Part shown: piece by piece, positions 5,534-43,640 of the stretch
How positions within the stretch are numbered: position 1 is the first letter of the stretch
Layout: every line of letters begins with the position of its first letter
Source of the DNA: an uncultured Thiotrichales bacterium
GTDB taxonomy: Bacteria; Pseudomonadota; Gammaproteobacteria; GCA-2400775
DNA: 64,000 nt
Assembly (NCBI GenBank): GCA_964617475.1
Contig: CAZTYM010000001.1
Coordinates: forward strand, 100,085 to 164,084
Direction of reading: 5' to 3'
The notes under the pieces: model-generated
What the model saw: only the letters and a program-made list of their open reading frames with translations
The model's database searches: none
Told to the model about the DNA's origin: nothing
Position numbers and translations under genes: made by a program

Positions 5534-7284
5534 TGAGCGATTTTATCGACAGCAAACAAATTAAAAGACGGCATATTAATGCCGAGCTCGCGCTGCCTGA
5601 TTCAATGCACCCCGTTTTGGCTAAAGTGCTCGCTGCCAGAGATGTGCAATCAGTAAATGAACTAGACTATTCCCTAAACCAGTTGCAGCCTTATGAGAAA
5701 TTGTTCGGCATTAGCGAAGCATGTCAGTTATTACATAAGCATTTAAAGCTCGGTTCGCACATATTGATTGTCGCTGACTTTGATGCTGATGGTGCAACCA
5801 GTTGTGCTTTAGCTATGCGAGGCCTAAAAGCTATGGGTGCAAAGCAGGTTTCCTATGTTGTGCCCAATAGATTTGAATACGGCTATGGCCTAACGCCAGC
5901 GATTGTTGAGGTAGCAGCAAGTCATACACCCGATCTAATTGTTACCGTGGATAATGGTATATCCAGTAACAATGGCGTGGCCGCTGCACGCGAAAAGGGC
6001 ATTGATGTATTAATCACAGATCATCATCTACCGGGTAAGCAGTTGCCAGAAGCAAATGCCATCGTTAACCCAAACCAGCATGAAGATAAATTTCCAAGTA
6101 AAGTGCTAGCTGGTGTTGGCGTGATGTTCTATGTGCTGATGGCTTTGCGTGCTGAGCTTAAAACCAGCAATTGGTTTGGGGAAAAAAATATTCCTATACC
6201 TAACCTCGCTCAATGGTTAGATCTCGTCGCCTTAGGAACTATTGCCGATGTTGTGCCGCTTGATCATAATAATCGTATCTTAGTTGAACAGGGTCTGCGT
6301 CGTATTCGTCAGGGCAAATGTTGTGAAGGTATCAGCGCATTGCTCGCCGTATCTGGTCGTAATGCCACTTATCTCGCAAGCGCTGACTTGGGCTTTGCTT
6401 TAGGGCCAAGACTCAATGCAGCTGGGCGGCTTGATGATATGCAACAGGGTATCGAATGTTTATTGTGTGACGATACCGCCACCGCATTGCAAATAGCGCA
6501 ATCGCTTGATGAGTTAAACCAGGAGCGCCGCGATATTCAAGCGCAAATGAAAAAAGAAGCGATTGCCGAATTACGTAATATACGTGTCGAAGAGCAAGAC
6601 CAATATGGCCTATGTATTTTTCGCCGTGATTGGCATCAGGGTATAGTCGGTCTCGTAGCGGCTCATGTAAGAGAACAAAAACACAGGCCAGTTATTGCTT
6701 TTGCTGTCAGCGGTGAGGGTGAGCTCAAGGGTTCGGCACGTTCAATTCCTGGTTTACATATCCGCGATGCCTTAGACAGCGTTGCCACGCGTTATCCGCA
6801 CCTTATTTCTAAATTTGGTGGTCACGCCATGGCCGCAGGTTTAAGTCTACAGGAAGACCACTACGCAGAATTCTCACAACGCTTTAATGAAGTAGTTTGC
6901 GAAATGCTTAGTGAAGAAGATTTAAAAGAAGTAATTCATAGCGACGGCGAGCTATTAGAAGAATATCTCGATCTCGAAGCTGCTTTTGCGCTGCGCGGAG
7001 CAGGGCCTTGGGGCCAGCATTTCCCGGAACCGTTGTTTGATGGCAGTTTTGAGATTGTTGATAAACGCATCGTTGGCGAGAGCCACTTAAAGCTAAAACT
7101 GCGTGCCAAGCAGGGCCGTATTGTCGATGCCATTGCCTTTAATATCACCGACGAAGACTGGCCAGAAGATGTGGTAAGCGTGCGCGTCGCTTACCGTTTA
7201 GACATTAATGAATATCGCGGCGAGTGCTCACCACAGTTGATTATTGAGCATGTAGAGCCGCTTTCCACCACAGCGGTTAGCTGA
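5530..7284 (+). CDS. recJ: Single-stranded-DNA-specific exonuclease RecJ
   Basis: DHH motifs (ADFDADGATS, DHH) and DHHA1 region at RecJ length (584 aa). Lies upstream of prfB-lysS as in E. coli. Confidence 0.9.
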   Translation: MMSDFIDSKQIKRRHINAELALPDSMHPVLAKVLAARDVQSVNELDYSLNQLQPYEKLFGISEACQLLHKHLKLGSHILIVADFDADGATSCALAMRGLKAMGAKQVSYVVPNRFEYGYGLTPAIVEVAASHTPDLIVTVDNGISSNNGVAAAREKGIDVLITDHHLPGKQLPEANAIVNPNQHEDKFPSKVLAGVGVMFYVLMALRAELKTSNWFGEKNIPIPNLAQWLDLVALGTIADVVPLDHNNRILVEQGLRRIRQGKCCEGISALLAVSGRNATYLASADLGFALGPRLNAAGRLDDMQQGIECLLCDDTATALQIAQSLDELNQERRDIQAQMKKEAIAELRNIRVEEQDQYGLCIFRRDWHQGIVGLVAAHVREQKHRPVIAFAVSGEGELKGSARSIPGLHIRDALDSVATRYPHLISKFGGHAMAAGLSLQEDHYAEFSQRFNEVVCEMLSEEDLKEVIHSDGELLEEYLDLEAAFALRGAGPWGQHFPEPLFDGSFEIVDKRIVGESHLKLKLRAKQGRIVDAIAFNITDEDWPEDVVSVRVAYRLDINEYRGECSPQLIIEHVEPLSTTAVS

Positions 7285-7338: not shown

Positions 7339-8437
7339 ATGATCGAAATTAATCTCATCTCACGTCGTATCAAAGATATGCAGGATCGCAGCAACGCTCT
7401 AAGGGGGTATCTTTGACTATGAGCAAAAGCACGAGAGATTAATCGAGGTCAGTCGAGAATTAGAGCAACCCGAAATCTGGAATGATGCCGAGCGAGCCCA
7501 GGCACTGGGTAAAGAGCGTTCGCAGCTTGAGCAAGTTGTTAACACCCTCGGAACTCTGGGCAGTACCTTAGATGACAGTAAGGAGCTCCTAGAGCTTGCC
7601 GCCGAAGAAGATGACCAAGAATCGGTAGATACCGTCGAAGCGGATTTAGATGAACTGGAAAACCAGCTTGCCGCCTTAGAATTTCGCCGCATGTTCTCAG
7701 GCGAAATGGACCCTAACAATTGCTACCTTGATATTCAATCAGGTTCAGGTGGTACCGAAGCGCAAGACTGGGCAGAAATGTTATTGCGTATGTATTTGCG
7801 TTGGGGTGAGCGCAGCGAATTTAAAACTGAACTAATTGAAGTTTCACCGGGTGATGTTGCGGGGATTAAACAAGCGACTATTCAGTTTACGGGGGAGTAT
7901 GCCTTTGGCTGGTTGCGCACTGAAACCGGCGTGCATCGTTTAGTGCGTAAGTCACCTTTTGATTCCGGTAACCGCCGTCATACATCGTTTGCTGCCGTGT
8001 TTGTTTCACCGGAAATTGATGATGACGTTGATATAGAAATCAATCCCGCCGATTTACGTATTGATACCTACCGTGCCAGTGGAGCCGGTGGACAGCATGT
8101 AAATAAAACCGAGTCCGCCATTCGTATTACGCATATGCCGACCAATGTTGTGGTGCAATGTCAAAACGATAGATCACAACATAAAAACAAAGCTACAGCG
8201 ATGAAACTGCTCAAAGCGAAGTTGTATGAGCTAGAAATACAAAAACGTTCAGCCGATCAGCAAGCCGTAGAAGACAGCAAGGCCGATATCGGCTGGGGTA
8301 GTCAAATACGCTCTTATGTTTTAGATCAGTCACGTATCAAAGATCTACGCACCAGCGTAGAAACCGGAAACACCCAAGCCGTCTTAGACGGTGACTTAAA
8401 CCAATTTATCGAAGCCAGCTTAAAAAGCGGACTCTAA
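7339..8437 (+). CDS. prfB: Peptide chain release factor 2, with programmed +1 frameshift at codon 26
   Basis: Frame 1 reads [25 protein letters not shown] then TGA at 7414-7416. The +1 frame continues DYEQKHERL...[16 protein letters not shown] (SPF/GGQ RF2 motifs). An internal SD-like AGGGGG lies 3 nt upstream of CUU UGA C, the classic RF2 autoregulatory site. Confidence 0.9.
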
Positions 8438-8453
8438 CCATCAGGATAAGCCC

Positions 8454-9938
8454 ATGTCTGAATTAGACGAAAACGAACAAATTACCCAACGTAAAGAAAA
8501 GCTGGCAGAAATGCGCCAGTCAGGCCAAGCCTATCCTAATGATGTACGCCGTGATGCTTTGGCGGGTGATTTGTTGGAGGCGTATAACGAGTTAGACAAA
8601 GAAGCCCTAGAAGAAAAGGCTATTGAAGTTTCCGTAGCAGGGCGCATGATGACCCGCCGTGTCATGGGTAAAGCCAGTTTTGCTCATCTACAAGACATGA
8701 CCGGCCAGATTCAGTGTTTTGTCCAAAAACAAGCTTTGCCAGAAGGTGCGTATGACGATTTTAAAAAATGGGATATTGGAGATATTATCGCAGGTAAAGG
8801 CGTTGTTTTTAAAACCAAAACAGGTGAATTGTCTATAAAGCTATCTGAGTTGCGTTTAATTACTAAATCACTACGCCCATTGCCGGAAAAATTCCATGGC
8901 TTGGCAGATCAAGAAACGCGTTATCGTCAGCGTTATGTTGATTTGATTATGAATGAATCATCACGCGATGTATTTCGAGTACGCAGTGCTACGGTGCAAT
9001 TCATTCGTAACTTCTTAAACGACAAACGTTTTATCGAAGTTGAAACACCGATGATGCAAGTGATTCCGGGTGGTGCCACCGCTCGTCCATTTGAAACCCA
9101 CCATAATGCCTTGGATATGGGCTTATATTTACGTATCGCGCCGGAGCTATATCTCAAACGTTTAGTCGTTGGTGGTATGGAAAAAGTTTTCGAGATAAAC
9201 CGTAACTTCCGTAACGAGGGTTTATCAACCAGACATAATCCAGAATTCACCATGCTCGAATTCTACCAAGCCTATGCGGACTACCATGACCTAATGGATA
9301 TCACCGAAGAAATGCTGCGCGGTTTAGCCGAAAGCGTATTAGGTAAAACCATCATCGACTACCAAGGTGAGCAATACGACTTTGGTAAACCATTCGAGCG
9401 TATGACGGTTAAAGAATCCATCTTAAAACTTAATAATGATATCAGCGCAGAACAACTAGAAAGCCTTGAATCCGCACGGGCAATTTGTGAGCGTTTAAAA
9501 ATCAAAATCAAAGACTCATACGGTTTGGGCAAACTACAAATCGAGATCTTTGAAAAAACCGTTGAGTCAAATTTAAAACACCCAACTTTTATTACCGAAT
9601 ACCCAGTCGAAGTCTCACCACTCGCTCGTCGTTCAGAAACCAATGATTTCGTTACCGACCGGTTTGAATTTTTCATTGGCGGTCGTGAACTTGCAAACGG
9701 CTTCTCAGAGTTAAATGATCCAGAAGACCAGGCCGAACGTTTCCAACAACAAGTGGAAGAAAAAGACGCCGGTGATGATGAAGCTATGCACTACGATGCC
9801 GACTATATTCGTGCATTAGAATACGGTATGCCCCCGACAGCAGGCGAGGGTATCGGTATAGACCGTTTAGTCATGTTATTAACCGACTCACCATCCATCC
9901 GCGATGTATTACTCTTCCCCCATATGCGACCCGAATAA
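8454..9938 (+). CDS. lysS: Lysyl-tRNA synthetase
   Basis: Class II aaRS motifs and LysS-like sequence throughout ([24 protein letters not shown]); 494 aa. Confidence 0.9.
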
Positions 9939-10556
9939 GGTGCGATTAGCACCTTATGAGATAGTGCCTGTGGTACGCCCTGAGTGATTAGCGATAGCTA
10001 ATCACGAAGAAGTGGTCTTGGGCCGCGACCCGAATAAATAATTTAAGGGGTCAGCACCTCGTTTTCTATTTTTAGAAAACGGATCTGTAACCCCTAAAAC
10101 TGTCATCTCTATAACTTCGTTCACCCTGAGCTTGTCGAAGGGTAAGCCAGTCCAAGGGTAAACTAGCCTCATCACATCATCCCTGCGCCCTGAGTAGTTT
10201 ACGATAGTAAACTACGAGGAAGTCGTCTTGGGCGGCGCCCTGAATAAGATCCGACTAGGATCTTATGAAGAAGTGGTCCTGGGCCGCGCCCTGAATAAGT
10301 AGTCCCTTATCCAGTTTAAACGCACCCCTCGACACGCTCGGGGTGAACGCAGAGTAGGCAAGGTAAGTCTTAAAGTGTAAGAATTGTAAATATTCCGTTC
10401 ACCCAATGCCCTGAATAAGATGCGTTAAGCATCTTATGAAGAAGTACCCTTGCGGTAAGCTTGTCGAAGGGTGAGCTTATCAAAGGCTGATCCCTGAATA
10501 GTTTGCGACTATTATGTTACGACGAAGTCAACTTAGACAACGACCGGAATAAGTAA
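9939..10556. repeat. Array of REP/BIME-like hairpin repeat units in the lysS downstream intergenic region
   Basis: Conserved flanks GCGCCCTGA(A/G)TA(A)G ... GA(A/G)GAAGTGGTC(C/T)TGGGC(C/G)GCG recur at about 9980, 10183, 10227, 10288, 10408 and 10492. Each encloses a different perfect palindrome (for example GTGATTAGC-GAT-AGCTAATCAC, GTAGTTTAC-GAT-AGTAAACTAC, AAGATGC-GTT-AAGCATCTT). An AGCTTGTCGAAG motif and the palindrome CGTTTTCTA-TTT-TAGAAAACG are also present. Confidence 0.7.
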
Positions 10557-10940
10557 ATGAATATTTTTAAAAAGACATCGTTTTGGGTGATTGTGTCAAT
10601 CATTGGTTTTGGGTTTATCGCTTTTTCGCTGATACCAAAACCTATCGATACGAATTTAGACAATATTGGTAATGGCCAGAAATCAGTGGTGTTTGTTTAC
10701 GACGCCAATTTAACGGTCAGTAACCAGCAAACGGTTGAGATAAATAAAGCACGCGAAACCCTCGGTGAGAGAGTTAATTTCTTATTGGCCAAACCAGGAG
10801 ACCCTAGGGCTGAATCATTTTTAAAACATCATCTGGCTTTATCTACGGATTTGTTGTTTTTTAATGAGTCAGGGGAGTTAGTTGATCGGCAGGTGGCCTT
10901 ATTGAGTGCTGAGGAGTTGATTGAGTCGTTGTCTGATTAA
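10557..10940 (+). CDS. Hypothetical membrane-anchored protein
   Basis: 127-aa ORF with an N-terminal TM helix and no recognisable catalytic motif. Embedded between repeat clusters. Confidence 0.45.
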   Translation: MNIFKKTSFWVIVSIIGFGFIAFSLIPKPIDTNLDNIGNGQKSVVFVYDANLTVSNQQTVEINKARETLGERVNFLLAKPGDPRAESFLKHHLALSTDLLFFNESGELVDRQVALLSAEELIESLSD

Positions 10941-10974
10941 GTCTGCTTGCTGACTCAGTTTCTTTCTTATCGTC

Positions 10975-11300
10975 ATTCCTGCGCCCTGAATGATTAGAGT
11001 GAGCTATTCATGAAAAAGTGCCCTCGGGGTACGAAAGCGGGAATCCAGATATAAAAATCTTTCGCCGTACCCTGAATAAGATGCGATCAGCATCTTATGA
11101 GGAAGTGCCCTTGGGACGAGCCCAGAATAATTTGCGTATATATCCGTTCGTGCTGAGCTTGTCGAAGCACATACTATCGAGGTTTTATGGCCATATGAAA
11201 ACCAGCCAATCACCTCTCAAAATCTATACATTTTTTTCGCCACTTCCTTCGGAAGTTTGCGCGACTTACTTTTTTCATAAAAAGTAAGCAAAAAACTAGC
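10975..11300. repeat. Second cluster of the same hairpin-repeat family plus additional palindromes
   Basis: GCGCCCTGAATGATTAG..., TACCCTGAATAAG-ATGCGATCAGCATCTTATGAGGAAGTGCCCTTGGGACGAGCCCAGAATAA, a third copy of AGCTTGTCGAAG, and the palindromes ACTTCC-TTC-GGAAGT and CTTACTTTTT-TCAT-AAAAAGTAAG. Confidence 0.6.
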
Positions 11301-11609
11301 TCCTAATCAGCCGGCCTTTGGCTTCCCTCGCTCGCACTGGAAATACAAGGGCCTGCGGAACTCGCTTTACTAAAGTAAAGCTCAAACAGTCCTCGGCCTT
11401 ATCGCGTATTTCAAGCACTTGCTCGGCAGCTGATAAGTCGCGGACAAAATGTTTGTGTGTTAACTAAATTAACGGCGGATTGCGTAATGGGTCTATATAC
11501 TTGCTTCAATAATATAAATATTTTATATCCGTTAAGCGAGTTAAAAATTACATTTCTTTTCGGTATTTGGAGCTGTGAATAACAGGATGATAATAGGAGG
11601 CAACCCAGT

Positions 11610-12032
11610 ATGGATGCGCTAGGTGTTCCCATAGTGCTTTTAGCTACTATATGGGGAGCATTCGCCGTTGTATTTAAGGCATTAGAGCTTATGACTGACC
11701 GTAGAGACCTGTTCCATGGATTTAAACTCCATGGAAGTACGGATACAACGTGCGATATTGATATTAAGCTTCATCACTTTTTGGACTGGTTACCCTTGTG
11801 GTTTGGCGTCATGATTTTTTTGATCATTTTTTCAGTAATAATATTTTTTGTACCAGACTTCCTTGATATAGATGATGAAACTTACCAATCAAAAATAGAG
11901 TTTATTAGAAATATTTGCTCAATCGCGGCTGCTATTCCACTGTTTGGTGCAATAGCATTCTTATTTGGTGGTTTATATGATATTGCCATATTTTATAAGG
12001 CACATAAACATAGGCGCAGGTCGAAATCATAG
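11610..12032 (+). CDS. Hypothetical small membrane protein (2-3 TM) in low-GC island
   Basis: Strong SD TAGGAGG 8 nt upstream of the ATG. Hydrophobic helices; AT-rich codon usage unlike the flanking genes; no known family recognised. Confidence 0.5.
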   Translation: MDALGVPIVLLATIWGAFAVVFKALELMTDRRDLFHGFKLHGSTDTTCDIDIKLHHFLDWLPLWFGVMIFLIIFSVIIFFVPDFLDIDDETYQSKIEFIRNICSIAAAIPLFGAIAFLFGGLYDIAIFYKAHKHRRRSKS

Positions 12033-12093
12033 TGTCAGACTCCTTGATTTTTAAACACTAGGTATATTCGTCTGAAATCAAGGAGTCTGACAC
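12033..12093. promoter_or_regulatory. Perfect 19-bp-stem hairpin immediately after the stop codon (terminator-like or regulatory structure)
   Basis: GTGTCAGACTCCTTGATTT pairs with AAATCAAGGAGTCTGACAC across a roughly 23-nt loop. No T-run follows, so this is not a canonical intrinsic terminator. Confidence 0.5.
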
Positions 12094-12148
12094 CATGATT
12101 TCCTTTAAAGAATGACTTAACGGAGAGCATTGTGATATGGGAGGAAGT

Positions 12149-12478
12149 ATGGATATCAATAATTTAATTCAGCTTGGAGCAGTTTTGGTTGCAATCTTTT
12201 CTCTAGTTTGGCAGCAATCGCGACTTGTAAGGGAAGAGCAATTGAAGGAAAAAAGGATAGATACTAAGCTTCGTATATTTTATATTCTTACGGATAAGGC
12301 AAGAGACTTAAAAGAAGAGGAAATAATTACGGCACTAGAGAAAGGTCAGCCACTATCCGACGTTGATAAAAACGAAATTAGAAAATCTCTATACGAAATG
12401 CTTAAAGATGAAACTGTGCGTTTTACTTATGGAAAAAAGTATAAGCCTCGAAAGAGATCTGAGTCTGATGAACCATAA
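12149..12478 (+). CDS. Hypothetical protein with N-terminal TM helix and charged helical C-terminus
   Basis: GGGAGG SD 5 nt before the ATG at 12149 (the ORF track start at 12137 lies inside this SD). Low-GC; family not recognised. Confidence 0.45.
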   Translation: MDINNLIQLGAVLVAIFSLVWQQSRLVREEQLKEKRIDTKLRIFYILTDKARDLKEEEIITALEKGQPLSDVDKNEIRKSLYEMLKDETVRFTYGKKYKPRKRSESDEP

Positions 12479-12551
12479 CAAGGCAAATATAGTCGATCTT
12501 TTTTTACAAATGTTTTAATACTCTATTTGTTGATAATATAGAGAGGAAATA

Positions 12552-13127
12552 TTGCATAAGTACCTATATTTAACGGAAGTTGAGTGGGTAGATACGTGGA
12601 TAAATGGGGGATGCGTACCAGTTTCTTTGGCTAGTTCTTATTTATCGATTGAGCGTGATGGAATAATGACGCCAGACGAAAACCTGATTCATGAATCGCC
12701 AGTTCCAATTCCTAGCCTAGAAAATCACGGATTCCATGTTAATAATTGTCATAATATTACTTTCAAAGGTTGTACGGGCGATGGATTTAATATACCGGAT
12801 ATTATAGATGCTAACTATTACTCAGAAGATGGCTTAGTTTTGTCTTTTTGTAACACCTTCGATATATGTATCGCGAAGAAGCTTAAAAAGAAAGCATGTG
12901 TCAGAATTTTAAACATAAAAAAGCTTAAAAAGAATATAGATAGACAACTTGGTTGTAAGGGAGTTATGAAAAGTTGCGAATATACCTCTACCCATAATCG
13001 AAATCATTTCTTGAAGGATGAAGCTGATGCCTGGCAAGATGAATATCGTATTTTTTGGAAGACTACCATAGAGAAACAGGTCAATATACCAGCTGGTACT
13101 GCTGAGCTAGTTAAGGCTATAAAGTAA
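12552..13127 (+). CDS. Hypothetical soluble protein (191 aa) in low-GC island
   Basis: ORF with TTG start and a GAGAGG SD. Cys/His scattered (CHNITFKGCTGDG); no family recognised. Confidence 0.45.
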   Translation: MHKYLYLTEVEWVDTWINGGCVPVSLASSYLSIERDGIMTPDENLIHESPVPIPSLENHGFHVNNCHNITFKGCTGDGFNIPDIIDANYYSEDGLVLSFCNTFDICIAKKLKKKACVRILNIKKLKKNIDRQLGCKGVMKSCEYTSTHNRNHFLKDEADAWQDEYRIFWKTTIEKQVNIPAGTAELVKAIK

Positions 13128-13256
13128 AAATTAATATGAGAAATCCCAAATACTGTAGGCATTATCTGAAGCGTTAAACTAATCGATCAGTTTTTGATGA
13201 TTAGAATATAAATAATAAATACTAATAGCGCCTTTATGAGCTTAATAATCCCACCA

Positions 13257-13805
13257 CTAAGCAGGGTTAGGAAACTCGTGCTCGCGACAAATTTGTTTTA
13301 TTTCAACTTTAGTAAGAGGCTCACCTGTCAATCCACACTTAAATTTTCCGTTGCTCATGGATTGATTAAAACGACAAGATTGGCATTGCCCAAAGCCATG
13401 ATGATCTTTTTTAAGTTGCCAGTCCATAAGGAGTGACTTCACCGCATCGCTAGCTTCTTTCGCTTCGCCAAAATTGGGCATTAGAGAGGTGGCCATACGT
13501 TTAACCGTAGATTTGGCTTTTGCTGTCATATCGAGTCGGGTAACACGCTTATCGTCGGCACACTGACGCCGCTCAACGTAACCGTCTTTCTCCAAAAGCT
13601 TGAGGCTCTGCGAAATACTCCCTTTTGTTTGTCCTAAATACTCGCTGAGTGCCTGTGCGGTGTTCGAGTACCGATTACAAATCGATAAGTATTGCAAAAT
13701 TTCAACATGTACAGGCTGAATACCCTCACTGTTGGCAGCCTGCCGCACCTGGCTTTTATAAAGCGAAGTTAGCCTCTCCAGCCAAATTTTAATGTCACTT
13801 ACCAT
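13257..13805 (-). CDS. MarR-family transcriptional regulator with C-terminal Cys-rich extension
   Basis: wHTH region (VHVEILQYLSICNRYSNTAQALSEYLGQTKGSISQSLKLLEKDGYVERR) typical of MarR. Extra C-terminal GQCQSC...KFKCG...ICREHE (four Cys). Start taken at the internal MVSD; a longer start at 13868 is possible. Confidence 0.7.
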   Translation of the reverse strand: MVSDIKIWLERLTSLYKSQVRQAANSEGIQPVHVEILQYLSICNRYSNTAQALSEYLGQTKGSISQSLKLLEKDGYVERRQCADDKRVTRLDMTAKAKSTVKRMATSLMPNFGEAKEASDAVKSLLMDWQLKKDHHGFGQCQSCRFNQSMSNGKFKCGLTGEPLTKVEIKQICREHEFPNPA

Positions 13806-13824
13806 AGTCAATATAGTATAGCTT

Positions 13825-13891
13825 CTAAACTTTATTGACAATCTTAAAATTACGAGTATTATTCTCATAAAGTTTAGATTCTAAACTTTAT
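13825..13891. promoter_or_regulatory. Divergent promoter/operator: sigma70-like TTGACA-16-TATTAT (+ strand) with a palindromic operator at the predicted +1
   Basis: TTGACA 13835-13840 and TATTAT 13857-13862. Perfect palindrome ATAAAGTTTAG-ATT-CTAAACTTTAT at 13867-13891, with a third half-site CTAAACTTTAT at 13825-13835. Confidence 0.5.
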
Positions 13892-13957
13892 TACAACCGT
13901 ATAGAGGAAGAAAGCTATGCCGTACCTATCATCAGCAAAAATCATACAGGTGGTTTC

Positions 13958-14227
13958 ATGAAGATCGATGTTTACGACTCCTATGCCAATAGAGTGGACG
14001 GTCGTCTCATGCATTTTGATGTGTTCATTAAAGCAGGCACTCCCTCAGACACCGCATTGCGTCATGGTAGGGAATGGCTAAGCAGTATTGGCGAAAACCC
14101 AGCCGGTTTGCAGCAATCGCGTTGTAATTTTTGCCATACCGAAGTTGCCAACCCTGAAGTTCAAATAATGGTCGAGCGGCAAGGTTTTTTTATTCTGCAA
14201 ATGGAAGGCTGTCCGGCACCCGTTTAA
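13958..14227 (+). CDS. Small conserved protein of unknown function (DUF-type, 89 aa)
   Basis: ORF directly downstream of the promoter/operator, with a CNFCH motif. Family assignment (possibly DUF2024-like) is from memory only. Confidence 0.5.
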   Translation: MKIDVYDSYANRVDGRLMHFDVFIKAGTPSDTALRHGREWLSSIGENPAGLQQSRCNFCHTEVANPEVQIMVERQGFFILQMEGCPAPV

Positions 14228-14370
14228 CCCTAATTAGAAAGGAGCATACGATGAAAAAACGAAATTAATTGGCGAATAATTAGGATCAGCTACAAACCCA
14301 TCGGATTCTAGTTATTTTTGAAGTCTCGAGTATCAACGTACCGCACACAACTAAACGGAGAGATTAAACT

Positions 14371-14847
14371 ATGAGAACGAAACATTTACTTATTGCTGCA
14401 GCATCACTTATAGCAACGGCCTGCGTCCAAGCTGATAATAAGGTTGATTATCCTGAAAACTTTCGCGATATGTATCATGTAAAATCACTGGTATTACACG
14501 ATGACCATCCACTTGCTGATCCATTCGCTGGTATCCATCATATTTATGCTAATGATATTGCTAAGCAAGGCTACGCCAAGGGTAAGTTTGCCGATGGCTC
14601 TGTGATCGTATTTGATTTATTCAATTCAGAGGAAGGCGGCGGCGCTTTAGCCGAAGGTAGTCGCAAACTTACAGGTGTTATGGTGAAAGACTCTAAAGCC
14701 TATAAAAAGACGGGTGGCTGGGGTTTTGAAGGTTTTGCTGGTGACAGTAAGACTGAACGCCTAGTCACTGATGGTGGTGCAGGCTGCTTTGCTTGTCATG
14801 AGGCAAATGCGAAAGACAGCGACTTTGTTTTCAGTAAATTACGTTAA
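14371..14847 (+). CDS. Cytochrome P460 family protein (periplasmic)
   Basis: Signal peptide, then GAGCFACHE haem-binding CXXCH near the C-terminus. Size about 160 aa and overall pattern fit cytochrome P460. Confidence 0.7.
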   Translation: MRTKHLLIAAASLIATACVQADNKVDYPENFRDMYHVKSLVLHDDHPLADPFAGIHHIYANDIAKQGYAKGKFADGSVIVFDLFNSEEGGGALAEGSRKLTGVMVKDSKAYKKTGGWGFEGFAGDSKTERLVTDGGAGCFACHEANAKDSDFVFSKLR

Positions 14848-15534
14848 TTAAGTCTTCAAAACAGTAAAGATCTTATGTGTGGCGGCCATAATCGGCTTAT
14901 GGTTTTGACCATGCATGTTTGCCCTCGTTGCGAGTAAAACCTGTTAACTCATTGTCAGCATAGGTGAGAAAAAAGATAACCTAGCAAAAAAGGGCAAAGT
15001 GAGTTACTCAATAAATGGGGTGGAAGACAAATGCAACTGTTTATTGGTCTCGTTCGTCACTACCCCATTTTTCTTGCATAAAGTATAAGGAATAAGAATA
15101 AAAAGTCTTACCCATTTTATTGTATCTATCAAATATAAAGGCTGGACTCCTTGGTTTTTCTATCAGCCTGGTTATGTATCGATTACGATAGGTTGACCTA
15201 GCGTTATTGGTTCTACCATCTAACCACCTAGATATCGCCTTAATCTGTTGCTTATTTTTAGCAGATTTCATATTTGTTTCTATCTTTCAAATTCGTGAAC
15301 GCCTTCACATTTTTCGCTTCATGTTTTCCGCTGGCTTCGTCGCTAAATATCAGGAGAGGGATAGGTTTCGTTTTCTAGGCGCCAGGCTGTTTCCGAGCAG
15401 CTAAAGATACTTTTTTTGACCTATATAGTCGCTTTCAGTAGCTGATGGCCTCACTGAAGTTTGAACAATATTTATTTGTATCTGATTGAGTGCTTTTTAA
15501 GCACTCTGAAATCAATGTTAAGAGAGCTGTTGGA

Positions 15535-17166
15535 ATGAGTAATCAAGGGAAAGAAATACCGCACGGATCGCTAGACAACTTTAAGCGTAATTGGAAAGCC
15601 GACGCGATGTCTGGCTTCCTTGTCTTTTTAATCGCTCTACCTCTTTGTCTTGCCATTTCCGTTGCTTGTGGATATCCCGCTATTGCTGGTGTGTATACCG
15701 CAATCATCGGCGGTATTTTATCTGCGTTTCTAAGTAATTCTGAAATGACAATCAAAGGCCCAGCGGCCGGGTTGATAGTTGTTGCTTTAGCCTGTGTCAC
15801 CGAATTCGGTTTTACGGGTGGCGAAAATATTGAGGCTGACATTCAAGCCTACCGTTTAGCACTGGGCGTGGGTGTTGTTGCGGGTTTAGTGCAGGTGTTC
15901 CTTGCGATTATGCGGTCTGGTGCTTTGAGTGAATTCTTCCCGGCGCCAGTCGTTCACGGTTTATTGGCATCAATTGGTGTGTTGGTTATTGCCACGCAGC
16001 TTCCTATTATGTTGGGTGTTCAAGGTGATGGCGCGCCATTAGAACGATTGGCTTCGATACCCAGTTATCTGTTTGAGATGAATCCGGCAATAGCTTTAAT
16101 CGGCGGTATTAGTCTGCTGATTATGTTTGGTTTTACTTATATTAAAAACCCCAAATTTAGAATTATTCCTGCACCTATGTTGGTTTTAATAGTGGCAGTA
16201 CCATTAGGCATTTACTTTGATATCGGTAATGTACAAAGTATCTCTTACTTTGGGATAGAGCATACTTTCGGTCCGCAGTATTTAGTCAATGTACCAGATA
16301 ATATGTTTAGTGCTATGGTCTTTCCAGACTTTTCCGGCGTGTTTACGGCAGTCGGTATTAAATACATTATTATGTTTGCGTTAATCGGCAGTATAGAGTC
16401 GGTGTTGAGTGCTAAGGCGGTTGACCAGATAGACCCTTGGCGTCGTAAAACCAATTTTGATAAAGATCTTCTCGCAGTTGGCGCGGGTAATACGCTGGCT
16501 TCATTTATTGGTGGTTTGCCAATGATTTCAGAAATTGCACGTAGTAAAGCAAATATTGATAATGGTGCTCGTACTCGTTTCTCTAATCTGTTTCATGGTG
16601 TTTTTCTACTTGGCTTTATCGCTTTAGTACCTGCGTTGATTAATCAAATACCATTAGCAGCGCTTGCTGCAATGTTGGTATTTACTGGGTTTCGCCTTGC
16701 ATCACCAAAAGAATTTATTCATATGTATCAAGTTGGGCGTGAACAGTTTATTGTATTTCTTACGACGATCATCGCCGTGCTTGCGACTGATTTATTGATG
16801 GGTATTTTTATAGGCCTGCTTACTAAAGCGATACTGCATATTATCAATGGAGCACCAATTCGCTCTGTATTTATGCCAAGTATTGAAGTGACTGAAAGTA
16901 ATGACGAAACTGCCATAGTAAAAGTGAGTAAGGCAGTGATCTTCAGTAACTGGCTTCCCGTGAAACAAGCTATCAATCGTCAAAGAGCAAATAAAGTAAT
17001 GATAGATTTGTCTAATACTAATTTGGTGGGCCATTCAGTCATGGCTAATTTGCATCAAATAAAAGACGATTTTGAGCGCGTAGGGCGAGAGCTTGCAATC
17101 ACAGGTATTGAGGCTCATCAACCACTATCAAGGCATCAATTGGCTGCGCTGAAAGCAAAAGCGTAA
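15535..17166 (+). CDS. SulP-family anion transporter with C-terminal STAS domain
   Basis: Multi-TM SulP core (GYPAIAGVYTAIIGG..., PLAALAAMLVFTGF) with a C-terminal STAS-like region. Start moved to MSNQ, downstream of an 8-bp palindrome that overlaps the longer ORF start. Confidence 0.85.
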   Translation: MSNQGKEIPHGSLDNFKRNWKADAMSGFLVFLIALPLCLAISVACGYPAIAGVYTAIIGGILSAFLSNSEMTIKGPAAGLIVVALACVTEFGFTGGENIEADIQAYRLALGVGVVAGLVQVFLAIMRSGALSEFFPAPVVHGLLASIGVLVIATQLPIMLGVQGDGAPLERLASIPSYLFEMNPAIALIGGISLLIMFGFTYIKNPKFRIIPAPMLVLIVAVPLGIYFDIGNVQSISYFGIEHTFGPQYLVNVPDNMFSAMVFPDFSGVFTAVGIKYIIMFALIGSIESVLSAKAVDQIDPWRRKTNFDKDLLAVGAGNTLASFIGGLPMISEIARSKANIDNGARTRFSNLFHGVFLLGFIALVPALINQIPLAALAAMLVFTGFRLASPKEFIHMYQVGREQFIVFLTTIIAVLATDLLMGIFIGLLTKAILHIINGAPIRSVFMPSIEVTESNDETAIVKVSKAVIFSNWLPVKQAINRQRANKVMIDLSNTNLVGHSVMANLHQIKDDFERVGRELAITGIEAHQPLSRHQLAALKAKA

Positions 17167-17266
17167 CTCGTTGTTCTAAAAACCTCTCCAAAAGTTTGCG
17201 TCATATATAGCTTGGTTCATAATGAACCAAAGTTTTTCTACTTTTCTCAGAATAAGTGATTGAGTT

Positions 17267-18031
17267 ATGGCAGTAAATAAGAAAGAACAGATACATGCTT
17301 TATTAAAAGGCATTGAAAGCGGTGACCCTTCTGCCGTATCTGTGGTTAATGAGGAAAAATATATTCAACATAACCCGCAGACGCATGAGGGGAGTGAAGG
17401 TTTGGCTGTATTATTTAAGCGCTTATCGCAAGTCTCTCCTCGCGTAAATATTGTTCGACTCTTTGAAGATGGGGATTTTGTCTTTGCTCATACTGAGTAC
17501 GATTTTTCGAGACGAAATATTGGTTTTGAAGTTTTTCGGTTTGAAGATGGTCAAGCTATAGAGCACTGGGATAATATTCAGAAAAGAGCTGGGCCTAATA
17601 TTTCTGGTCATTCTATGGTTGATGGTGCTGTAAACATTGAAGAAGTAGAAAAGACTGAAGAGAATCGACTATTGATCAAGTCATTCATTGAAAATGTAAT
17701 GATCAATACTCAATTTGATCAAATGACTGATTATATTTGTGCGAGAGAATACACCGAGCATAACCCAGAGTTGAGTGATGATTTGGACTTATTGCTAGCT
17801 CGATTATCAAAAATAGGCGATGGCGATGGTTATATCAGTTACGATAAATGTCATCGTTTACTAGCAGAAGGAAATTTTGTTTTATCTATTTGTGAAGGGC
17901 GAAAGGATCACGCGCACACCTCATTTTACGATCTATTTCGGATAAAAGAGGGAAAAATCGCTGAGCATTGGGATACGGTTGAAGCCATTCCTCCAGCTAG
18001 TGAATGGAAGAATAATAATGGTAAGTTCTAA
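17267..18031 (+). CDS. SnoaL-like / NTF2-fold protein (tandem duplication)
   Basis: Two internal repeats, each ending ...FEDGQAIEHWDNIQ and ...KEGKIAEHWDTVE, typical of SnoaL-like polyketide-cyclase-fold proteins. Confidence 0.55.
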   Translation: MAVNKKEQIHALLKGIESGDPSAVSVVNEEKYIQHNPQTHEGSEGLAVLFKRLSQVSPRVNIVRLFEDGDFVFAHTEYDFSRRNIGFEVFRFEDGQAIEHWDNIQKRAGPNISGHSMVDGAVNIEEVEKTEENRLLIKSFIENVMINTQFDQMTDYICAREYTEHNPELSDDLDLLLARLSKIGDGDGYISYDKCHRLLAEGNFVLSICEGRKDHAHTSFYDLFRIKEGKIAEHWDTVEAIPPASEWKNNNGKF

Positions 18032-18034
18032 GAT

Positions 18035-18496
18035 ATGAAAAAATGTTTAAATTTTATCTTGCTTTGTTTTGTCTCTGGCTGTTCAAGCAAGGCGCCAACC
18101 TTAGGTGTGAGTAATGGTTCGTTAAAAGAATGCCCGTCTTCTCCAAATTGTGTGTGCAGTCAATCTGAGAGTAAAGAACACCTTATTGAACCAATAGAGG
18201 CGAAAGTAAGTTTAGCTAAAGCAAGGGAAATTTTGTTAAATGTCATGGCGGATGCCGAAAGGGCTAATACAACTGTTGAACAAGAAAATTATATTAGAGC
18301 AGAGTTTTCCTCCAGACTCATTGGTTTTGTTGACGATGTGGAATTTTATCTGACAGGGGGAAACGGGAAGAACACTATCATTCATGTTCGATCTGCGTCT
18401 AGAACAGGCTATTCTGACTTAGGTGTTAATAGGAAGAGAATTGAGTCAATCAGACAGAAAGTAAATTTGCTAGCAAGTAAAGAACACTCACTATGA
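18035..18496 (+). CDS. DUF1499-family lipoprotein
   Basis: Lipobox LLCFVSGCSS, then CPSSPNCVCS and SDLGVNRKRIESIR motifs reminiscent of DUF1499. Confidence 0.5.
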   Translation: MKKCLNFILLCFVSGCSSKAPTLGVSNGSLKECPSSPNCVCSQSESKEHLIEPIEAKVSLAKAREILLNVMADAERANTTVEQENYIRAEFSSRLIGFVDDVEFYLTGGNGKNTIIHVRSASRTGYSDLGVNRKRIESIRQKVNLLASKEHSL

Positions 18497-18903
18497 CTCA
18501 TCAATCTGGTTTTGAAAAAGAGTATTCCGAGAAAAGTTTTTGGAACAAACTGTCTAAGTACGCTAAGGCAGCTGGGGTAGAAGTTGTCGAGAAAGCCTTA
18601 TTACTTTTTTATGCTGCTCAGGAAGAAACAACACCTGCGTGGGCGAAAGCGACGATTATTGGTGCTTTAGGTTATTTTATCAGCCTGGTCGATGGTATTC
18701 CTGATCTAACGCCGATTGTAGGCTACACGGATGACTTGGGTGTGCTGGTAATGGCGATAGCGACAATTTCCTCTCATATTACAGAAGATGTTAAAACCAA
18801 GGCGAAGAAAAAAATTGAGGAGTGGTTTGGTGATTCTGCGATTGATTCTCAACCGGATAGTACTGTGCCACCTAGTCAGATAGAAGATAAGCGAGAAAAC
18901 TAA
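18493..18903 (+). CDS. YkvA/DUF1232 membrane protein
   Basis: DGIPDLTPIVGYTDDLGV motif characteristic of DUF1232. Start overlaps the upstream stop (ATGA). Confidence 0.6.
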   Translation: MTHQSGFEKEYSEKSFWNKLSKYAKAAGVEVVEKALLLFYAAQEETTPAWAKATIIGALGYFISLVDGIPDLTPIVGYTDDLGVLVMAIATISSHITEDVKTKAKKKIEEWFGDSAIDSQPDSTVPPSQIEDKREN

Positions 18904-19039
18904 AAATAACTATTTTCAGAGCTTTTTAGAAGCCTCTTTTTCCAATTAAATATTGCTACAACTAGTCCGTGAGAAATCTGTAATATTCATTCGTTATCAT
19001 CGACATATTGCTGTAGTTTATGCTTAGGAGCGTGAAACA

Positions 19040-43563: not shown

Positions 43564-43640
<77 letters not shown>

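Follow-up and report, generated by a model that had tools for sequence, protein, structure and literature searches.

A mosaic field of small hairpin repeats at the end of lysS in an uncultured Thiotrichales bacterium

The repeat field after lysS

The window we have analyzed is a stretch of 64 kb (64,000 nucleotides) from an uncultured Thiotrichales bacterium (assembly GCA_964617475.1, contig CAZTYM010000001.1, positions 100,085 to 164,084). The gene order on the contig is recJ-prfB-lysS. The last of these genes, lysS (8454–9938, + strand), codes for a class II lysine-tRNA ligase, with the Pfam domains tRNA_anti-codon and tRNA-synt_2. A field of small tandem repeats begins at its end: seven units of 49–51 nt and one or two decayed ones, found between positions 9927 and 11118. 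Each unit contains a conserved start, CGCCCTGA, a hairpin of variable sequence, the conserved motif GARGAAG and a short hairpin ending in TG. All units are on the + strand, as are the other repeats of the field and the reading frame embedded in it, unless indicated otherwise. Modules related to the field continue to about 11443. A first-pass annotation, made from the sequence alone, had placed a field of hairpin repeats at 9939–10556. The field is real, its limits are wider: It starts inside lysS and extends well beyond the end suggested.

A covariance model (CM), built from 47 members of the family, was run on the window. It found seven units at E<=6e-5, all on the + strand and within 9924–11121, with nothing below E=0.7 in the rest of the window. 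The flank pattern CCCTGART-N17-22-GARGAAGTNNNCYTGGG gives four matches in the window and none in 100 shuffled sequences, while GARGAAGTGSYCYTGGG, allowing up to three mismatches, gives seven matches against a shuffle mean of 0.89.

The first unit, U0 (9927–9975), is diverged and overlaps lysS. Its first 12 nt, CGA CCC GAA TAA, are the 3' end of the gene including the stop (the last codons are ATG CGA CCC GAA, followed by TAA), and the stop codon sits within the 5' arm of the U0 hairpin, ATAAGGTGC-GATTA-GCACCTTAT (CM match 9924–9968, 31.4 bits, E 5.8e-5). U1 (9976–10025) has the hairpin GTGATTAGC-GATA-GCTAATCAC and a score of 65.5 bits. It is followed by a partial unit start, CGACCCGAATAA (10026–10037), identical to the lysS end at 9927–9938. 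U2 (10186–10235, hairpin GTAGTTTAC-GATA-GTAAACTAC, 65.3 bits) and U3 (10236–10286, ATAAGATCC-GACTA-GGATCTTAT, 47 bits) form a second array, closed by the partial start CGCCCTGAATAAG (10287–10299). U4 (10409–10457, ATAAGATGC-GTTAA-GCATCTTAT, CM match 10404–10460, 60.5 bits) splits a repeat of another kind, module S2. U5 (about 10492–10540, within the feature 10490–10553) is decayed, and its 7.7 bits are not significant; the partial start CGACCGGAATAAG comes after it (10541–10553). U6 (10982–11031, CM match 10979–11034, 49 bits) is also decayed and splits the hairpin GTCATTCC...GGGAATCC. The last unit, U7 (11070–11118, within the feature 11070–11131), has the hairpin ATAAGATGC-GATCA-GCATCTTAT (CM match 11065–11121, 62.3 bits) and is followed by the partial start AGCCCAGAATAAT (11119–11131). 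Every run of units ends in this way, with partial starts at 10026, 10287, 10541 and 11119. The terminal 12-mer of lysS is found three times: at 9927, at 10026 (12/12 identical) and at 10541 (11/12).

Structure of the unit

The general scheme of the unit is 5'-CGCCCTGA-(variable stem of 9–11 bp with a G..A loop)-GARGAAG-(UACUC-UUG-GGGUG)-3'. In the window, each unit contains a near-perfect palindrome, whose sequence differs from one unit to another. The first-pass annotation described a different perfect palindrome in each unit: They do differ, not all are perfect, and those of U5 and U6 have decayed. It also proposed that the stem changes while pairing is kept, which is borne out by an alignment of 47 units from the window and other genomes. 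In the long stem (columns 12–20 with 27–35), eight of the nine pairs are changed on both sides and 91.5% of the cells are paired. None of 500 shuffles reaches this covariation, and control registers obtained by sliding drop to 26–52% paired.

RNAalifold extends the base of the long stem through tandem G.A/A.G pairs, U9-R38 and C8-G39. Column 38 contains only A or G opposite U9, which is called invariant (UA25, UG21, CG1). A second hairpin, UACUC-UUG-GGGUG, is also predicted, and covaries at two pairs (AU36/GC6/GU4/CG1 and CG40/GC4). The window units have a compensated version, GUGGUC...GGGCCGC, and the final base of the unit is the final base of this hairpin. The conserved flanks that had been described are present, they also hold the tandem G.A extension and this second hairpin. 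In both stems there are far more G.U than A.C pairs (40 vs 7 and 79 vs 2). This identifies the + strand as the one that folds. The loops are mainly of G..A types.

In 85 units extracted without reference to it, the flank GCGCCCTGA is 94–100% conserved. CTGA precedes the stem in all 85 (extraction required G10 and A11, T9 is 94% conserved), and the 5' start of the stem itself, RT[AG][AG], is variable. With RNA parameters the units fold strongly (z-scores from -2.9 to -5.7), as does the region 9900–10300 of the window (z -4.97). With DNA parameters, the long hairpin alone is robust. An outer pairing, GCGCCC/GGGUGC, is conserved and is predicted by RNAfold for consensus units; there is nearly no covariation in it, and its formation would compete with that of the short hairpin.

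A stretch of the lysS coding sequence immediately before the junction is similar to the tail of the unit, with 12 identical positions of 15, a value reached by 11 of 2000 shuffles. This is found in some lineages only, and is only suggestive of an origin of the family from a duplicated lysS end. The partial units prompted us to consider that each unit might be a former lysS end, with only synonymous variation in its 5' flank; the 85 unbiased units do not support it. Hammerhead and other small ribozyme cores, searched by eye, were also discarded: CUGAGUGA has an extra base, and the A14 equivalent varies between A and G.

Distribution in other genomes

Species-representative genomes were scanned with the flank pattern, which matched at 63 loci; the unit is clearly present in about 56 of them. 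The covariance model found 84 units in the loci fetched. They are found in metagenome-assembled genomes (MAGs) of Gamma-, Beta- and Alphaproteobacteria, including sulfur-oxidizing and wastewater bacteria.

Dispersed copies are found in NORP163, CSMAG_324, Thioalkalispiraceae, Thiohalobacter and uncultured Thiotrichales, and in one alphaproteobacterial MAG. The unit is present in 10 contigs of NORP163, 5 of CSMAG_324, 5 of SRP128015_co1_108 and 4 of SRP135972_co2_294. Practically all arrays outside lysS are intergenic (40/42). The gene upstream of these 42 arrays is on the same strand in 22 cases and on the opposite strand in 13, with none called in the other 7; seven dispersed arrays are antisense to both neighbors. 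The genes next to the dispersed copies appear to be ordinary housekeeping genes, judging by inspection only; the exception is an IS3-like fragment in locus L043.

The distribution is different in the Propionivibrio/Accumulibacter/Rhodocyclaceae group. Almost every copy begins at the ATG|CGCCCTGAGTGA of lysS, in about 25 betaproteobacterial loci whose LysS is 59% identical to that of the window, and only two betaproteobacterial copies are found away from this gene. A metagenome scan for the betaproteobacterial lysS junction gave nine more loci, with one to three units each. In several of these loci (L069, L073, L075), the units are followed by an intrinsic terminator.

A single copy with perfect flanks and a poorly paired middle is found in a member of the Firmicutes, Natroniella acetigena (locus L045, 762–815); it could be the result of horizontal transfer or contamination.

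Neither viral contigs nor the 72,556 plasmids of PLSDB contain a match to the unit. Rfam, searched at gathering and permissive thresholds with the window and with consensus-type loci, gave nothing relevant: The matches in the field region are chance ones (E>=0.49), and five loci with consensus units gave none. A full-text search found the sequence in no paper. The family is undescribed.

Insertion in other repeats

Many units lie inside other repeats, which we have found both with and without them. The inserted sequence is CGCCCTGA...GGGGTG(TA) in all filled modules. It follows a left flank with YG at its end, and we see no sign of a duplication. These comparisons suggest that the unit is a discrete insertion module of about 50 nt, which would enter after YG without a clear target duplication.

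The first-pass annotation reported the motif AGCTTGTCGAAG three times, and we find it at 10129, 10458 and 11156, with a diverged copy at 10473 and an inverted one at 10327–10339. It belongs to a separate host module, S, into which the unit inserts. The form of this module is TTCGYTC-ACCCTG|AGCTTGTCGAAGGGT. It is empty in S1 (10116–10143), TTCGTTC-ACCCT-GAGCTTGTCGA-AGGGT, which contains AGCTTGTCGAAG, has a tandem partial copy up to 10159 and is 97% identical to 1511–1541 of locus L060, from a Thiotrichales MAG. It is also empty in S3 (11143–11170), CCGTTC-GTGCT-GAGCTTGTCGA-AGCAC, whose stem is compensated relative to S1; its filled counterpart is the L060 copy CGTTCGTGCTG-unit-AGCTAGTCGAAGG. 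In L053, L060, L055 and L085 a unit occupies the exact point between CTG and AGCT of this module, as does U4 in the window. The latter splits S2 (10395–10486) into a left half (10395–10408) and a right half (10458–10472), with a tandem partial copy at 10473–10486. An inverted S module (10324–10352, - strand) is 86% complementary to 10115–10143.

The hairpin split by U6 (10972–11046) has unsplit copies, GTCATTCCCTTGGAGAAGGGAATCC, in L053, L060 and L077. Module H (11233–11443) is a composite palindromic repeat, ...GCGACTTACTTTTTTCATAAAAAGTAAGC...CTCCTAATCAGC|CGGCC...GGCAGCTGATAAGTCGCGG, 94% identical to L053 621–671. It is empty in the window and filled after ATCAGC in L053 and L016. This module (GCGACTTACTTTT..AAAAGTAAGC ... 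GGCAGCTGATAAGTCGCGG) has a size of 200–450 nt and recurs in relatives: L053 (about 440–680), L016 (4440–4700) and L077 (about 5690–6190), the last one with internal insertions. Module T (10042–10099) is a separate dispersed repeat, a long hairpin of 58 nt formed by an inverted repeat with a GC core and a T run. It contains a terminator-like site (10047–10060), is 89% identical to L060 4514–4560 and may act as a portable bidirectional terminator. The modules of the field other than the units are common to a Thiotrichales MAG.

Other hosts are found in other genomes. In Thioalkalispiraceae-type MAGs, a single unit lies inside the nested palindrome GTCATTGCG...CGCAATGAC. Copies of this palindrome are found both empty and filled, in the latter case with the unit at one of three positions. 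In NORP163 (L005, L013, L017, L022, L028, L062), one to four tandem units occupy the center of a miniature inverted-repeat transposable element (MITE), flanked by TA and with 27-bp terminal inverted repeats, TACTAAGGAGYMCATTGATKAGACGACA. It is roughly 230–380 bp long, longer when it has more units, and its ends suggest an origin of the IS630/Tc1 type. Other gammaproteobacterial MAGs (L029 2320–3060 and 6784–6900, L011, L012, L021) have numerous copies of a nested palindrome, GTCATTGCGAG-(arm)-GCGGCAATCTC...GAGATTGCCGC-(arm')-CTCGCAATGAC, with the unit at several positions.

A given hairpin subfamily may be present at lysS in one genome and within S or H in another. For example, the ATAAGATCCGACTAGGATCTTAT hairpin is present in U3, in the unit at the lysS stop of the relative L076/L085, and in the insert of H or S in L053, L060 and L016. 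The U1 subfamily is also found in L085 (within an S module), L055, L048 and NORP163.

The variable locus

The segment from lysS to a sulfate-transporter gene (10038–15276) is variable: Synteny with a 97% relative breaks after 10037 and resumes at 15277. The GC content drops to 0.352 at 12001–13000. In the window, the island contains three small low-GC open reading frames (ORFs) without a Pfam match, together with MarR, DUF2024 and cytochrome P460 genes. The relative with a 97% identical LysS (L076/L085) has three units at the stop codon, other than those of the window; its S module is filled and the order of the modules is different. In L085, the same interval (11581–19032) contains a type I restriction-modification system with RhuM. 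Relatives with an 88% identical LysS have two units and a partial one, and a KAP NTPase lies beyond them. A more distant relative (78%), whose LysS ends in MRPERAK*, has no units. The first-pass annotation had suggested a recombination or insertion hotspot and a comparison of this junction in related strains; the variability of the locus fits such a hotspot. The overlap of U0 with the lysS stop, the recurrence of the unit at lysS in Betaproteobacteria and the role of S as a host module are absent from that annotation.

An ORF of 127 amino acids, ORF127 (10557–10940), is embedded in the field. It has a hydrophobic N-terminal helix and gave no match in a Pfam scan: It is a conserved hypothetical protein, outside the repeat family. 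We considered it as a cassette gene and discarded this possibility: Its 18 homologues (53–66% identity) are all in unrelated gene contexts, none of them beside lysS, although their flanks were not scanned for units.

Two other observations concern the rest of the window. Upstream of lysS, prfB contains CTTTGAC at 7411–7417, and the GAC frame (7415) is open and RF2-like up to 8437, a layout that agrees with the canonical programmed +1 frameshift of release factor 2. A single tRNA gene (43564–43637) is the only Rfam match in the window at gathering score.

Interpretation

We interpret the field as a nested mosaic, composed of very small mobile repeats, non-coding and non-autonomous, which would have accumulated at a permissive and variable locus after lysS; we would give this interpretation a probability of about 0.55. 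The unit would be copied in the form of a folded single strand, and the enzyme responsible, provided in trans, would most plausibly be an HUH-type nuclease. The strand-specific fold, the conserved single-stranded junction and the lack of duplication point to such a mechanism. Since TG is found at the end of every unit, a target would be recreated by each insertion, and arrays could grow beside a unit already present. Insertion after YG of units ending in TG would explain the arrays without spacers, in which adjacent stems differ. The end of lysS, ..ATG|CGNCCNGAR-stop, would imitate the junction between two units, ..GTG|CGCCCTGAG.., and the first 12 nt of the unit would encode again Arg-Pro-Glu-stop: LysS would be left intact and the insertion would be tolerated or neutral. 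This would explain why the same arrangement is found in two bacterial classes. The variation of the stem would correspond to dispersed subfamilies under a constraint on the fold, rather than to a function specific of the locus.

Several observations weigh against this interpretation. No transposase, integrase or relaxase is found near any copy, either in the Pfam lists or in a probe search, so the mobilizing activity is entirely inferred. The probe search was done by tblastn with IS200 TnpA and YafM and gave none in about 0.55 Mb of loci and in the window; its sensitivity was low, and such probes would miss distant RAYT transposases. The filled and empty pairs are paralogous or diverged copies rather than alleles, and the precise deletion of a unit is also possible. 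There is no orientation bias with respect to GC skew (19/37); such a bias would be expected for a lagging-strand single-stranded DNA transposon. The short hairpin relies on two G.U pairs and is poor with DNA parameters, which favors RNA. No second copy is found elsewhere in the 64-kb window, the part of the genome covered. Finally, the betaproteobacterial copies are nearly all at lysS, in sense orientation, between the stop codon and the intrinsic terminator: This placement looks more like a locus-specific element of the 3' untranslated region (3' UTR) than like a selfish repeat.

A role of this type is the main alternative. The unit would be primarily an RNA element of the lysS 3' UTR, acting as a stabilizer against exonucleases, as a modulator of termination at a stop codon buried in a stem or as a protein-binding site, and the copies elsewhere would be hitch-hikers. 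We regard this as unlikely, although several results agree with it. The first unit overlaps the lysS stop in two distant clades, and the betaproteobacterial arrays have the placement just described. The stems are strand-specific and rich in G.U, the RNA folds are strong, and the dispersed copies lean to the sense strand downstream of a gene (22 vs 13). On the other hand, of the 35 dispersed arrays for which an upstream gene is called, 13 have this gene on the opposite strand, seven arrays are antisense to both neighbors, and units are nested in other repeats and in a MITE. The number and identity of units change among close relatives, down to none in the 78% relative, and this rapid turnover makes a conserved regulatory role at lysS unlikely. 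No Rfam family matches either. The strands CUGA-R and Y-GAR-GA-AG can also be drawn as a kink-turn similar to Kt-7, with an identical bulged strand. We have given less weight to this motif: Column 38, with only A or G opposite U, favors a plain helix with symmetric tandem G.A pairs, which fits the 9-38 pairing better than a kink-turn bulge, and we know of no L7Ae-type partner in these classes.

A bolder version of the mobile-repeat interpretation is quite doubtful. By itself, the unit would make up a whole mobile element of minimal size, one of the smallest known. An HUH nuclease similar to a relaxase or to a RAYT would cut it and join it again, in single-stranded form, at the conserved junction TG|CGCCCT, which contains the MOBQ nick core GTGCGCCCT. 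The lysS end would be the natural homing site of the unit, since this end imitates the junction and the unit gives back the last codons and the stop, and the arrays would be a running record of insertions at a site which seeds the adjacent variable defense island.

An origin of the repeats by site-specific integration at the 3' end of lysS is improbable. Successive islands would each have brought a copy of the lysS end with its hairpin as attachment site, and the scars would be stacked attL and attR remnants. The three copies of the lysS terminal 12-mer, the partial start which closes every array, the similarity of the unit tail to lysS and the variable island beyond the field, with its low-GC ORFs, type I restriction-modification system or KAP NTPase, might be expected in this case. 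Nevertheless, no integrase is seen among the called genes and Pfam matches of the islands of the window and its relatives, the distal border at 15277 has neither a unit nor a lysS fragment, and the units abut without intervening DNA. The unit is also present at dozens of sites outside lysS, inside other repeats, and the stems differ between units, which is unexpected for the arms of a sequence-specific recombinase. A simple local tandem duplication of the lysS terminator region is very improbable: The window has no other copies and slippage could make arrays grow, but several MAGs, belonging to three classes of Proteobacteria, contain the unit on many contigs, and the differing stems of adjacent units match units at other loci and genomes.

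If the field is indeed a mosaic of mobile repeats, it would be a proteobacterial example of apparently mobile repeats which are too small to encode anything. It offers several handles for study: a fixed recognition-like sequence of 25 nt across classes, a free stem and a predictable landing on the stop codon of an essential gene. The family also gives a way, open to experiment, of finding the enzyme responsible for moving such elements. The unit can be used as a strain-typing marker, both in Accumulibacter/Propionivibrio and in populations of sulfur oxidizers, and annotation should take into account that a repeat may be the source of the lysS stop codon in these lineages. If the unit is an RNA element instead, it is an unrecorded 3' UTR motif of an aminoacyl-tRNA synthetase operon.

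Comparison with known systems

Two well-known arrangements may be set aside. The field is not a CRISPR array, as the first-pass annotation already stated: The variable part is a palindrome within the unit, and the units abut without a spacer. It is not an RNA array of a type III toxin-antitoxin system either: The arrays follow lysS and precede unrelated genes or none, and the neighboring ORFs have no Pfam match to toxins.

The unit may also be compared with plasmid transfer origins (oriT). The nick region of the MOBQ family has the consensus NWACCNNTAAGTGCGCCCTYNN (PMC3832669). The junction between two units, GGGGTGCGCCCTGAG, contains GTGCGCCCT, the core of this consensus, and has a hairpin just 5' of it. 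The unit boundary we propose, TG|CGCCC, is 2 nt from the nick position of RSF1010. The match is only 9 nt long and no more than a lead. The spacing from the hairpin to the nick region is also different, 0–2 nt in the unit against 8 nt from the inverted repeat to the MOBQ core AAGTGCGCCCT, and there is no relaxase nearby.

The unit also resembles the attC sites of integrons. Both have conserved ends, a variable imperfect palindrome whose structure is conserved and a single folding strand, and both form arrays beside a fixed primary site, with variable content downstream. However, the RYYYAAC/GTTRRRY boxes are absent from both strands (the flanks are GCCCTGA...CYTGGGG), the units have no cassettes and are dispersed at many loci, and no integron integrase is found among the called genes.

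The first-pass annotation also suggested MITE-like elements, which does not hold for the unit itself. It lacks proper terminal inverted repeats: Its ends, CGCCC.../...GGGTG, are complementary over about 5–6 nt only, and the filled and empty pairs show no target-site duplication. In the NORP163 carrier, which does have 27-bp inverted repeats and TA, the unit is cargo.

Repetitive extragenic palindromes (REP), with their mosaics (bacterial interspersed mosaic elements, BIME) and REPINs, are associated with RAYT transposases in E. coli and Pseudomonas (PMC3116915). The likeness proposed in the first-pass annotation stands in part. The unit is a short, structured and modular extragenic palindrome, found at many intergenic sites of related genomes, forming mosaics with other motifs and nested by mutual insertion as in BIME; movement as a folded single strand, with an enzyme in trans, is also proposed for REP and REPINs. 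There are differences: The 5' foot of the stem is CTGA, not GTAG/GTGG (GT[AG]G), and inverted doublets as in REPINs are absent, since clustered units are all direct, head to tail, in the window and at every locus. REP families conserve the palindrome within a genome, while the unit conserves non-palindromic flanks and its stem is free, even across classes. No RAYT was found in our search of about 0.55 Mb, which was of low sensitivity.

The BOX elements of Streptococcus pneumoniae have the structure boxA-boxB(n)-boxC, with an internal module of about 45–50 nt in a variable tandem number. The NORP163 carrier, with one to four units between terminal inverted repeats, is built in the same way. There is no sequence relation to BOX, and our unit is also found alone, in other carriers and on the stop codon of a gene.

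A further comparison may be made with the small dispersed repeats (SDR) of cyanobacteria. They have tens of nucleotides, form hairpins and are nested in other repeats, and their mobility is deduced by comparing filled sites with empty ones, no enzyme being known. They were reportedly presented as very small mobile repeated elements by Elhai and coworkers in 2008. The unit shares these features: It also has tens of nucleotides, forms hairpins, is nested, and its mobility is deduced in the same way. It differs from SDR in phylum and sequence, in having two hairpins and long conserved single-stranded parts, and in its preferred site at the end of a gene.

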